A stretch of DNA of 63,987 nucleotides, counting the filler, from Malassezia furfur (Eukaryota): assembly GCA_052055015.1 (NCBI GenBank). It is 6 parts of 6 records of this genome, joined end to end, with 100 filler letters (N's around TTAATTAATTAA, not from the genome) between each part and the next. Parts side by side here need not be neighbours in the genome. Positions count along the whole stretch, not along the records: positions 1 to 11,258 come from JBQJIT010000363.1; 5 more parts are not named here. One strand, 5' to 3'. Under the pieces are notes generated by a model. It was not told the DNA's origin, did not search any database, and saw nothing but the letters and a program-made list of their open reading frames with translations. The position numbers and the translations under genes were made by a program. The number at the start of each line of letters is the position of its first letter. Position 1 is the stretch's first letter. This document shows, piece by piece, positions 5,220 through 9,039 of the stretch.

Positions 5220-6983
5220 CTATGTGGAGCTATTCGTGCGCTGCGCCAACCGCTCGAGCTCCGCACGGCCCTCCCACGGCCGCCCGTCGTTGTGGATGCG
5301 CTCCCACTCGTCCAACAGGTCCAAGTCCACTGCACGTGCACCCAGTGCAAATTGGCGTTGGCATGCCCCGGGACCCGTAGATGCCTCGGACGCGAGCTGT
5401 GCCTCGTTGCCGTCGCGCGGCGGTGACAAAAAGCGCGTGCTGCGTAGTTGCTCGGGGAAGAACTCTTGGTGCACGGGGTGCGCAAAGTTGGGCTCGTAGC
5501 GATACTCGGCGCCATAGCCCAGGTTGCGCATGAGCGCCGTGGGTGCGTTGCGGATGTGGAGCGGCACGGGGTAGTTGAAATCATTTTGGACCATTTTGAG
5601 TGCCTTCTTCCAGGCGCGATAGGTGCGCGTTGATTTGGGGTATTCGGCGAGCGTCACGACGCAGTGCGATAAGTTGATACCGCACTCGGGGTATCCGACG
5701 ATCTCGCAGGCTCGGTACGTCGCGACGGCCAGATTGAGCATTTCGGGCGAGCAGCAGTCCTCGGACGCGCACACTATCAGCCGCCGTGCAATGAACAAGG
5801 GATCATCGCCGGCAGCAACCATGCGGGCAAGCCAGTAGAGCGCCGCGTCAGGGTTGGAGCCACGGATGCTTTTCTGGGTAAGCGCAGGACTACGCACGTG
5901 CAGGGCACTGATGGTATCGTAGTGGGCGTCGCCGGCACGGTCTGGGTCAGGTCTGGGGCGCAGTGACGTACCGTACTTGAGCGCGGTGCGCTTGAGCGCC
6001 TCCTTGAGGCTGCGTACGTTTTCTTCGTGCGATGCTTTCTCGTCGCCCGTGACGAGCGCGAGCTCGAGCGCATTGAGCGCCGCGCTGGGTCAATGGGTCG
6101 ACATACCGAGCATCGCCGTCGGCACTTTGTGCGATCCATTCGAGGAGTGCGTCGTCGATCCACGGCGCCACAACATCGCCTTCTTCTTTGACTCGCTCGA
6201 GTGCTTGTTTCAGTACCTCGAAAGAGTCCTTGAGCGATAGCTTGGAGAGGACCACGACACTGCGTCAGTTCAGCACGTACCGGAGCCGCGACAGCAGCGC
6301 ACCCTGCAGGCGAAACGACGGATTCTCGGTGGTGGCCGCCAGCAGCGTGATATGACTGCGTAAGCAGCGTGTACGCACCCCTTTTCGAGTGCAGGCAGGA
6401 AGATGTCCTGCTGCGAGCGGTTCAAGCGCTGGATTTCGTCGATGAACAAAACGCTGCGTTGCCCGGTGAGCTGCTGGCGGTGCACGGCCTCATCCATGAC
6501 TTTTTTCATCTCAGTGACAGTCGCAACGGTTGCTGACATCTCAATGAAGCGGTACGGCATGCCATGCGCGTCCGCCGACGCCTCTTTGGTGACAAGACGC
6601 GCGAGCGTCGTTTTGCCGGTGCCGGGCGGACCCCATAGCACCATCGACGGCACCTGACCGCGCTGAAGGAGCGCAAGCAGCGCGCCTCGCACGACGGCCT
6701 CCTGCCCAACGTACTCTTTTAGTGAGCGTGGACGCATGCGTTCGGCAAACGGCCGCGACGACGCCATGGGGTCCTTCCGTGGACGCGTGTCCCGCGCGTC
6801 GCGACGCGTCGGCGCGTCTGGCGGCGCGTCTGCTTTGCGTTTTCCCGGAGGTGGCTCCTTTTTGGGTGAGCTGGACCGCTCGCGCGCGAGACACTGATCC
6901 AGGTGCTCGTTGAGCACGCCGAACGCGACGCGTTCCCCGCAATTTGGGCACGCGACGCTCTCGTACGACGCGGGGGCGGCCAT
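5220..6983 (-). CDS. MGS1: Mgs1/WRNIP1 AAA+ ATPase with N-terminal UBZ zinc finger
   Basis: ATG 6983; CPNC..LNEHLDQCL, PFAERMRP, GPPGTGKTT, FIDEIQR, AATTENPSF, HYDTISALHKSIRGS; introns 6356-6378, 6260-6280, 6085-6106, 5942-5971, 5874-5897. Confidence 0.93.
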
Positions 6984-7050
6984 GGCGGGACACGTGACCG
7001 GCGGGGCCCGAGTCCGGCCGGGCGCAGGGATGGTTTGGCCACGAGCCAAG

Positions 7051-7659
7051 ATGAGCAAGCCCAGCGGCCATCTCGCGAGCGAAGAGGTGCTGAACAAGAA
7101 GGTGCGTGACGTGTCTGACCGCAGCTGGATCTTTGCATCAGCAATGCCATTGTGAAGACCGGTATCGGTTTCAGCGCCGGTGTGGTGCTCTCGGTGGTGC
7201 TCCTGAAGCGTACGTCCTTCTCCGCGTACTGACGCAGGCCGCTCGTGGCCCGTTTGGCTCGGCACCGGTTTTGGCCTGGGTGCAGGCTACACCGACTGTG
7301 AGCGCTCATTCAACCCTGTCGCCGTTCCTGGTGTGCGTGTGATCCCGAGCAGCGCTGCGGCCAATGTGCCGGACACGCAGATGGGCAAGATCCAGCAGCG
7401 TGTTGGCGAACTGTTTGGCCAAGCGAAGGACGAGACCGAGCAGAAGGTGCCTGCGGCTACGCAAAATATCCGTGACCAGGTGCAGAACCGCTTTGCCGAC
7501 CTCACCAACAAGGGCCGCGACGTCGTCGAGCAGCAGGTGAGCAACCTGCAGGACGCCGCGCACGACGTCGCCTCCAAGTTCCAGGAGAAGACGCAGGACC
7601 TGACGGATGCGGTTAAGCAGACCGAGCAGAAGGCCGAGGACAAGGTGCGCCGCATCTAA
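7051..7659 (+). CDS. MIC10: MICOS subunit Mic10 with extended helical C-terminal tail
   Basis: Introns 7102-7124 (23 nt) and 7210-7237 (28 nt) give SEEVLNKKLDLCISNAIVKTGIGFSAGVVLSVVLLKRRSWPVWLGTGFGLGAGYTDCERSFNP; Gly-rich TM motifs typical of Mic10. Confidence 0.9.
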
Positions 7660-7675
7660 CGGCGGGCATTCGTAG

Positions 7676-7940
7676 ATGCTGCGCGTAGTACCAAGGCGGA
7701 CTTCTAACGCTGCAGACGCTCTCGCGTGTCTATTCGGTTCACGCGCCGCACGAGCCGTGCTTGGCGTGCAAACTTACAGGTGCCGCGGCGCTCGCATGTG
7801 TGGGCATCGGCGCGCTCACCGAGGCGCACCGGGTCGGCTTCTTTTATGCGGCGCGTCGCACGCAGCCCAAATGGGGCGCATTTCTCACACTCGTAGGCAT
7901 TGCAGGGCTCGGTGGCAGCATCGCGCGCCTGACTACATAG
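7676..7940 (+). CDS. Small two-TM mitochondrial protein, DMAC1/DUF4536-like (not in ORF track)
   Basis: ATG-CTG-CGC 7676-7684, 31-nt intron 7685-7715 (CTAAC..CAG), open frame 7716-7940: ...EPCLACKLTGAAALACVGIGAL...WGAFLTLVGIAGLGGSIARLTT*; CxxC before TM1. Confidence 0.65.
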
Positions 7941-9039
7941 GGGTATCCAGCCATGCACGCAGATCCTGCTCGCGTTCTGCCAACGACGACACATGCAGCG
8001 TCTGCAGCTCGCGCGCGACCTCGGTGTCGGCGCCGCGCACTATCGACCAGTCGGCGTGCCGTTTGCATCGCCGCTTGGGCTCGCCGCAGACTACCTCGGG
8101 GCCTGTGCCGTCGTGCTGCCCCGCAAAGCGCCCGTCGAGCGGCGCCTCCTCTTGGAGCATCGTGCGGCCCGCTGGCGATGTCGCCCACGCCCATAGCGGC
8201 TCGTCATCCCATGCGAGACGCGCATCAAACCCGCACCGCGGGATGCTCGCATCACGCTGCTTCCCCACGTCCTCCTCCGCCGCAGGTGGCAGCGTCGACA
8301 GCCGGTCCTCGGCGAGCTGCAGCAGCTTGCCGCGCACCGCAAGCACGTCAAGCAGCACATTCCCACGCGCGCTCTCGGTACGCACACGTGCGAGCTCCGC
8401 GGCCCACTGCGCGTGCTCTTGCTTGCCGTCGAGCGGCGTCGCATGCGCGCGAGCATACGCACCGACACTCGTGCCTGGCGGTGGCCCCGCGATTGGCGCG
8501 AGCGTACGGATGCCGTCCTGCATGCGCGCGAGCCATGCATGGGTCGACTCCTGTGTGGATGCACCCTGGGCGAGTGAGGGACGCGTCCATACCGCATATC
8601 CGCGTGGGTGGTGCGCCGAACGCACGGCGTCGGTTGTGAGCCGCGTGGCGGCGTTGGGCGCGTCATCGAGTGCGAGCACGCGGTCACGCACGGTGCGCAT
8701 ACCACATTCATCCGAGCAGTACAGTGAGATGGGCAACCGCGCGGCGTTGGTGCATCTGGGGCTCTTGCACGGCTGCTTGTACGACGTACGTGCATCGGTG
8801 CCTGGGTGAGCGGAGCGACATACGTGTCTCGCACGACGAGCAAATGAACTGGTCGATACGCTCCACGGCATCGTCATCAATGTGCAGGCATGACGCGTGA
8901 AACCACTCGTCGCAGTGGTCGCACGCGATCATCACGCGGTCGTCCTCTGGGTCAGTGGTCGCGACATACCGAGCTCCGTGCGGCATACGCAGTACCGCTT
9001 GGCCTCCGTAGGCGGTGCCGCATCTATCGGGCCATGCAT
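7933..9039 (-). CDS. SPP1: COMPASS subunit Spp1/CXXC1-like PHD-finger protein
   Basis: ATG 9039; introns 8947-8969 (23 nt), 8802-8823 (22 nt); YCVCR..VMIACDHCDEWFHASC, YCSDECG, CGFDARL, C..RRCKRHADW. Confidence 0.85.

Follow-up and report, generated by a model that had tools for sequence, protein, structure and literature searches.

A conserved Dmo2/Dbi1/DMAC1-type coding exon downstream of MIC10 in Malassezia furfur and its putative use as an alternative terminal exon

Mic10 is the membrane-bending core of the mitochondrial contact site and cristae organizing system (MICOS), and in the fungus Malassezia furfur the MIC10 gene is followed almost directly, on the same strand, by an open reading frame (ORF) that resembles the small membrane proteins known as Dmo2 or Dbi1 in yeast and as DMAC1 in humans. 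This arrangement raises the question of whether the downstream ORF is a gene of its own, the second cistron of a shared messenger, or the last part of MIC10 itself. The stretch of DNA analyzed here, referred to as the window, comprises 63,987 nucleotides (nt), filler included, of assembly GCA_052055015.1 (six parts of six records, joined end to end), and the locus occupies positions 7051-7940, in the part derived from JBQJIT010000363.1. A first-pass annotation of this DNA had described a hidden DMAC1/DUF4536-like gene of 77 amino acids (aa), either separate or bicistronic with MIC10, that might also be spliced in frame onto it, an interpretation that is partly supported by the present analysis. 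The downstream ORF is a real, previously unannotated coding exon, and on balance it would appear to be the 3′-terminal exon of MIC10: removal of a terminal intron (7645-7715) is predicted to give a 255-aa fusion protein, and its retention Mic10 alone.

The coding exon downstream of MIC10

In the window, MIC10 consists of three exons with a spliced product of 185 aa and a TAA stop at 7657-7659 (Table 1). This product shares 179 of its 185 residues with the annotated MIC10 of M. brasiliensis, an identity that requires the removal of intron 1, and 177 of 185 with an M. furfur model (P0008). Exons 2 and 3 both match the DUF543/Mic10 family (PF04418; scores in Table 1, cut-off 24.1 bits). Mic10 is typically a two-helix hairpin with a glycine-rich second helix, and the G-x-G-x-G-x-G of that helix, here within WLGTGFGLGAG, is unchanged in all 23 aligned Mic10 sequences. 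The two introns are very short, which is normal for the genus, given that introns average 30 bp in the curated annotation of M. sympodialis (PMC5389616) and that minimum intron lengths of 15-20 nt were used in annotating M. restricta (PMC6473144).

The exon that follows encodes a C-x-x-C motif (C-L-A-C, 7758-7769, exon residues 15-18) just ahead of the first of two hydrophobic helices (approximately 7770-7826 and 7872-7931, with hydropathy peaks around residues 14-33 and 50-70). The DMAC1/DUF4536-like identity proposed earlier is upheld, with the qualification that the window exon alone scores 15 bits against the hidden Markov model PF15055 (E 0.029), below the gathering cut-off of 27; its relatives make the case, since 15 of the 17 aligned family members match PF15055 at E ≤ 0.05 (best 1.9e-7) and the Malassezia group aligns with PF15055-bearing domains in hhalign over 67 columns at a probability of 98.1% (E 1.4e-13). 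A phmmer search over 1.84 billion representatives returned nine matches to the exon, including the C-terminal domain of a 246-aa protein of Testicularia cyperi (E 9.8e-5 over the whole library). Close relatives of the exon, at 79-96% identity, consist entirely of ORF calls and include no NCBI protein; the exon is absent from the Malassezia protein sets examined. A sequence search of the PDB with the family profile gave only chance matches to nanobodies (E > 0.1).

Between two related Malassezia loci from metagenome contigs (L002 and L004), the proportion of synonymous differences within the exon (pS) is 0.20 and that of nonsynonymous differences (pN) 0.01, a ratio pN/pS of 0.03. The exon is under purifying selection, and because pS so far exceeds pN it is taken to be translated. 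It contains no methionine anywhere in the window, and an in-frame ATG ahead of the C-x-x-C motif is likewise missing from loci L001-L004 and L007, that is, from two of the four lineages compared below, so the exon requires an upstream exon to supply its start.

A DMAC1-like C-x-x-C domain is also present in a 119-aa protein (P0055), where the preceding part of the same ORF is a helical stretch rich in Ala, Asp, and Arg, similar to the end of a Mic10 extension of the kind described below; this protein may represent a fusion without introns, or else a contig of spliced transcript, from another fungus.

The junction and its counterparts in related fungi

The final codons of MIC10 have the form of a 5′ splice site. 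The donor AAG/GTGCGC (the slash marking the exon boundary) starts at 7645 on a codon boundary, four codons ahead of the stop; the stop is itself overlapped by a branch-like ATCTAAC (7654-7660), and a TAG (7673-7675) lies immediately 5′ of an ATG at 7676, leaving a gap of 16 nt between stop and ATG. All of these positions, first pointed out in the first-pass annotation, were confirmed base for base. Its proposal of an in-frame splice onto MIC10 also stands, in that excision of 7645-7715 produces an open 255-aa frame without internal stop, although the shorter excision that it had offered as an equivalent, 7645-7675, does not: on its own this leads into a 558-aa nonsense frame and was rejected as productive, and a frame of 258 aa results when 7685-7715 is excised as well. 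The 71-nt intron is the most likely one on sequence grounds, being the better match to local intron architecture: the 8 nt from its branch A to the acceptor agree with the 5-8 nt found among short ORF-joining candidates in the window (a heuristic list, not transcript-validated), whereas in the 31-nt option the distance is 16 nt and a weak second intron is needed for a productive message. The donor of that second intron, GTAGTA at 7685, is without the usual G at +5, which is present in both verified MIC10 introns.

The short gap between stop and ATG might suggest a true bicistronic mRNA, in which reinitiation or leaky scanning would allow both Mic10 and a small protein to be translated from a single unspliced transcript. 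Reinitiation past an ORF of 185 codons is inefficient in eukaryotes, the frame opened by the ATG at 7676 does not match that of the exon until 7685-7715 is removed through the GTAGTA donor, and half of the lineages lack an in-frame ATG 5′ of the C-x-x-C motif, all of which makes this account scarcely credible. Read-through of the MIC10 stop codon was also considered and rejected: the frames of MIC10 and of the exon differ in Malassezia, and three stops lie between them in L007.

Comparison was made with 18 Mic10 loci from metagenome contigs, seven of Ustilaginomycotina type and 11 from other fungi. Among the former, L001-L004 represent one Malassezia lineage, L005 and L006 a second, and L007 a lineage outside Malassezia, which with the window gives four DNA lineages. 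A DMAC1-like ORF lies directly downstream of Mic10 on the same strand at all seven Ustilaginomycotina-type loci and at none of the 11 others, within the locus DNA fetched. In all four lineages the Mic10 ORF ends AAG/GTGCG(C or G), NNN, RTC, stop; every downstream exon has a branch-site-like motif and a YAG on its 5′ side; and the first AG past the downstream branch site falls in phase 0 of the DMAC1 frame. Donor and acceptor are separated by 71 nt in the window, 64 nt in L002 and L004, 73 nt in L005, and 219 nt in L007, the last having an AAG/GTGCGG donor and an in-phase CAG acceptor with a pyrimidine tract. The synteny and splice-site conservation that the first-pass annotation had suggested examining were found, with donor, stop position, and exon kept in three further lineages; the in-frame splice is also backed by four annotated fusion proteins, described below.

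Within the spacer, conservation is concentrated at these signals. The run A-AAGGTGCGC and the branch-site TAACGC are invariant in all four aligned Malassezia sequences (window, L002, L004, and L005), and the remainder diverges. From acceptor to C-x-x-C motif the exon measures 14, 11, 12, and 27 residues across the four lineages; a stretch that varies in length in this way and yet always stays in frame behaves as coding sequence. L002 and L004 differ at one of the 64 spacer positions, as against 5% overall (279 of 5537), a difference that alone is not significant. The clade is known as intron-poor (PMC8476143), and in L001-L004 MIC10 forms one uninterrupted ORF (approximately 2501-3046 in L002 coordinates), both 5′ introns having been lost and the terminal junction kept.

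One terminal exon and two predicted products

Fused proteins that combine PF04418 and PF15055 are annotated in four species: T. cyperi (P0054, 246 aa), Pseudozyma hubeiensis SY62 (PHSY_003427, P0058, 249 aa), Sporisorium scitamineum (P0060, 251 aa), and Acaromyces ingoldii (P0040, 214 aa). In each the order is PF04418, an amphipathic linker, and PF15055, which is the domain order of the proposed Malassezia form, and the C-terminal domains are homologous by the hhalign comparison given above. In the three Ustilaginaceae models the join falls exactly after ...EDK, the lysine being the residue that precedes V-R-R-V-stop in the unfused model of Ustilago maydis (V-R-R-[IV]-stop across unfused models). 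In two Ustilaginaceae genomic ORF calls, the same first residues of the exon follow directly on a pyrimidine-rich stretch, which ends in a CAG-compatible codon pair in one and in a Lys codon in the other, as would be expected from the codons for a 3′ splice site; the Ustilaginaceae ORFs show no in-frame ATG. The exon of these three fusions begins Y-R-I, a possibly fortuitous resemblance to the retained tail V-R-R-V at the same position.

Unfused Mic10 models end in V-R-x-[IVL]-stop in 19 of 19 cases (the tail preceded by K in 18 and by Q in one), although the approximately 90 residues ahead of this tail show free variation in both sequence and length. A GTNCGN donor translates as V-R. The persistence of a stop four codons on and of a hydrophobic last residue, in spacers of 64-219 nt and although neither is a splice signal, fits selection on the product of the retained intron. 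This bears on the alternative that the fusion is constitutive, with the intron always removed, no form of Mic10 other than the 255-aa fusion, and annotation truncation as the origin of the 185-aa models. Fused models in four species and an exon without its own start codon would agree with such a scheme; an always-excised sequence, however, is not expected to keep both the in-frame stop exactly four codons past the donor in every lineage and a last residue that is always I, V, or L, and with C or G at +6 the donor falls short of the consensus, a common property of retained introns. A constitutive fusion is therefore judged quite unlikely.

In the mechanism that we favor, if with reserve, MIC10 would end in a phase-0 intron that begins at 7645, four codons before the annotated stop, and most likely extends to 7715. 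When the intron is retained, V-R-R-I would be read from it before the stop, giving the 185-aa Mic10; when it is removed, Mic10 with its amphipathic extension would be joined in frame to the C-x-x-C two-helix domain as a 255-aa inner-membrane protein with four helices. Production of both isoforms is inferred from the anatomy, homology, conservation, and purifying selection documented above, and the extent of intron retention would determine how much Mic10 is plain and how much is armed. Both termini of Mic10 lie in the intermembrane space. Since the C-x-x-C motif of Dbi1/Dmo2 also lies in that compartment, as do the ends of both parents, the fusion would be topologically coherent, with its C-x-x-C motif on the intermembrane-space side, and it could tether a Dbi1-type oxidoreductase and assembly chaperone to MICOS at crista junctions. 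The arrangement would be common to the Ustilaginomycotina, and it would exemplify an intron kept in an intron-poor clade, apparently because its stop codon selects between two proteins.

Several observations weigh against this account. The bare motif GTGCGY...CTAAC...YAG is at chance level, occurring once in the window against an expectation of 0.9 and at least once in 52 of 100 shuffles, so that phase, position, and conservation among relatives are all that lift the splice signal above chance. The donor has C at +6, where both verified MIC10 introns have T, as do the short ORF-joining candidates judged most plausible by eye, a choice that is biased to canonical donors. In six Malassezia species, and in eight or more other Ustilaginomycotina, the NCBI models are unfused and end V-R-x-[IVL]. 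The four fused models do not amount to independent proof, as gene predictors can merge adjacent ORFs when given an in-frame GT..AG path. No fused Malassezia model was seen, in a protein search that covered 76-244 aa, so that a fusion of approximately 255 aa lay outside it, and in a phmmer search that could hide one inside a 50% cluster. JGI gene models may, for their part, rest on transcriptomes. A search of the ESM Atlas with the Testicularia fusion gave only Mic10 clusters (scores ≤ 0.82), and no matching peptide or gene identifier was present in the supplements of the M. sympodialis proteogenomics paper (one file) or of the U. maydis expressed sequence tag paper (six files).

The chance level of the motif could mean that the junction is a coincidence: V-R-x-[IVL] would be a functional Mic10 C-terminus whose codons happen to look like a donor (GTG and CGC being common in a GC-rich genome), the neighboring ORF would be expressed in some other way, and the fused models would be prediction artefacts. 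Such a coincidence seems very improbable, because the exon is under purifying selection though it has no start codon, because a conserved branch site and acceptor flank it, and because the acceptor is in phase 0 in all four lineages despite the differing lengths of the N-terminal stretch.

More weight attaches to an ATG that follows the MIC10 stop, ahead of the exon; all three Malassezia lineages keep it, and in L005 and L006 it opens a continuous 78-aa ORF that might encode an independent small protein. The ORF would then be a separate gene, with a transcript starting within the 3′ part of MIC10, the ATG at 7676 as start, and the 31-nt intron 7685-7715 removed to leave a free 77-aa Dmo2/DMAC1-like protein. 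The frame of the exon can be reached from the spacer ATG in each lineage, through 7685-7715 in the window, through a 26-nt intron with donor GTAGCG in L002 and L004, and directly in L005 and L006; the genome is extremely compact, with the divergent neighbor 67 nt from the MIC10 ATG and the convergent coding ends overlapping by 8 nt; and yeast Dbi1/Dmo2 is free-standing, at 118 aa (PMC11850723). Both GTAGTA and GTAGCG, however, are without the +5 G of the two verified MIC10 introns, an in-frame ATG is absent from L007 and from every Ustilaginaceae ORF, and a separate gene would leave unexplained the conserved donor and the exact join of the fused models there. A separate gene is consequently regarded as unlikely, if less so than the other alternatives, and of the hidden gene or bicistron first proposed it is the reality of the coding sequence that survives, its independence from MIC10 having been weakened.

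If the ORF is indeed the terminal exon of MIC10, a wider and rather doubtful proposal may be considered, namely that of an alternatively spliced ‘Rosetta-stone’ gene throughout the subphylum. Ustilaginomycotina would then make both plain Mic10 and a Mic10 that covalently carries the Dbi1/Dmo2/DMAC1 oxidoreductase, the switch being a retained terminal intron of which the first 15 bases double as Mic10 tail and stop. Disulfide formation and the assembly of inner-membrane proteins (Tim17, Tim22, Cox20, and parts of complex I) would be placed at crista junctions, and an undescribed partnership of Mic10 with Dbi1/DMAC1 would be predicted for yeast and humans, whose genes for the two proteins are separate.

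Comparison with known systems, and other features of the locus

The Dbi1 paper (PMC11850723) and the Dmo2 preprint describe yeast Dbi1/Dmo2 (YDL157C) and human DMAC1 (TMEM261) as small proteins of the PF15055 family without a presequence and with a C-x-x-C motif just before the first of two transmembrane helices, as in the window exon. In Dbi1/Dmo2 this motif faces the intermembrane space ahead of the first helix, and the C-terminus is exposed in mitoplasts (PMC11850723; Dmo2 preprint). Dbi1 forms the disulfide of Tim17 and also acts on Tim22 and Cox20, Dmo2 supports the maturation of Cox2, and human DMAC1 is a complex I assembly factor that associates with complex I assembly intermediates (PMC11850723; Dmo2 preprint). 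The yeast and human genes are free-standing and have their own start codons, unlike the window exon, which has no methionine and scores below the family cut-off.

Compared with the Ustilaginaceae and Acaromyces fusions, which are database gene models, Malassezia has a far shorter spacer, of 64-73 nt, with an additional ATG in it. A parallel in mechanism is provided by the alternative C-termini of U. maydis, where, as proposed here, one gene gives two proteins that differ C-terminally through use of a terminal intron, the peroxisomal isoforms of GAPDH and PGK being examples. The addition is a short targeting signal in those cases, whereas the terminal exon of MIC10 would contribute an entire second domain from a membrane protein. 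Among alternative splicing events in U. maydis, intron retention predominates, at 59% (PMC2219887). Fungal polycistronic or read-through transcripts and the conjoined genes of metazoans likewise consist of two conserved units on one strand with almost no spacer. In contrast to those, the downstream unit here has no start of its own in most lineages and is preceded by a conserved in-phase splice, and it is thus exon-like and not a second cistron.

Fused models under the name MIC10 already exist in public databases, and an alternative terminal intron that gives two C-termini is also known; the partners of the fusion and its conservation across the clade are new. Literature searches on Mic10, DMAC1, Dmo2, Dbi1, TMEM261, DUF4536, and polycistronic transcription in Malassezia found no description of a fusion or linkage, and Mic10 is not mentioned in the Dmo2 preprint or in the Dbi1 paper (PMC11850723). 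The one printed hint of a Mic10-Dmo2-type link that was found is a Dmo2 pull-down in which MICOS components are among many proteins (Dmo2 preprint). Gene fusion is one of the stronger hints of joint protein action that sequence alone can give, and it hints here that the two proteins work together. As Dbi1/Dmo2/DMAC1 proteins have only recently been shown to oxidize and chaperone inner-membrane proteins (PMC11850723), a natural Mic10-Dbi1 fusion over a fungal subphylum would provide a direct and cheap hypothesis for yeast and human cells.

Table 1. Coordinates of features at the MIC10 locus (window positions).
Feature	Positions	Strand	Details
MIC10 exon 1	7051-7101	+	ATG at 7051, 17 codons
MIC10 intron 1	7102-7124	+	23 nt, GTGCGT ... 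CTGAC ... CAG
MIC10 exon 2, first transmembrane helix	7125-7209	+	DUF543, 33.6 bits
MIC10 intron 2	7210-7237	+	28 nt, GTACGT ... CTGAC ... CAG
MIC10 exon 3 to conserved donor	7238-7644	+	Glycine-rich second helix and long amphipathic helical extension; DUF543, 37.2 bits
Donor GTGCGC with putative intron-encoded tail V-R-R-I and TAA	7645-7659	+	Would be read only upon intron retention, giving 185-aa Mic10
Proposed terminal phase-0 intron	7645-7715	+	71 nt; branch site TTCTAAC 7702-7708; acceptor CAG 7713-7715
Alternative 31-nt intron	7645-7675	+	Branch-like ATCTAAC 7654-7660; acceptor TAG 7673-7675
Candidate mini-exon ATG-CTG-CGC	7676-7684	+	Followed by non-consensus donor GTAGTA at 7685
Second intron-like stretch	7685-7715	+	GTAGTA ... 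TTCTAAC 7702-7708 ... CAG 7713-7715
Dmo2/Dbi1/DMAC1-like exon	7716-7940	+	74 codons (7716-7937) and TAG stop 7938-7940; no Met
Convergent overlap	7933-7940	.	8 nt; last codons of the DMAC1-like exon against the stop (7933-7935) of a long minus-strand ORF

Some further features of MIC10 itself may be recorded. An in-frame ATG at 7030, 21 nt 5′ of the MIC10 start, is used by the M. furfur model and not by that of M. brasiliensis (P0007). The Mic10 of Ustilaginomycotina has a C-terminal extension of approximately 90 residues, amphipathic and helical (7380-7644 in the window), which has weak matches to the Apolipoprotein (E 8e-4) and ApoO/Mic26 (E 2.6e-3) families, both under cut-off, and no such extension is present in the matching exon of the 11 non-Ustilaginomycotina Mic10 loci. 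The M. pachydermatis MIC10 model (P0022) has nine additional residues, V-C-T-L-C-D-L-P-Q, exactly at the position of intron 1, apparently an in-frame intron of 27 nt that was not spliced out in the annotation.

Neighboring genes lie close on both sides. The long minus-strand ORF that converges on the DMAC1-like exon (7933-8877) has no Pfam match, and upstream of it, also on the minus strand, is a PHD-finger ORF (8708-8986), in which 8947-8969 is probably a 23-nt intron. On the other side a divergent AAA+ ATPase gene (minus strand, start at 6983, within the region 6270-7053) has RuvB_N/AAA matches and an N-terminal C2HC-like zinc finger, and because its start lies so near the MIC10 ATG, the promoter region shared by the two genes is extremely short.

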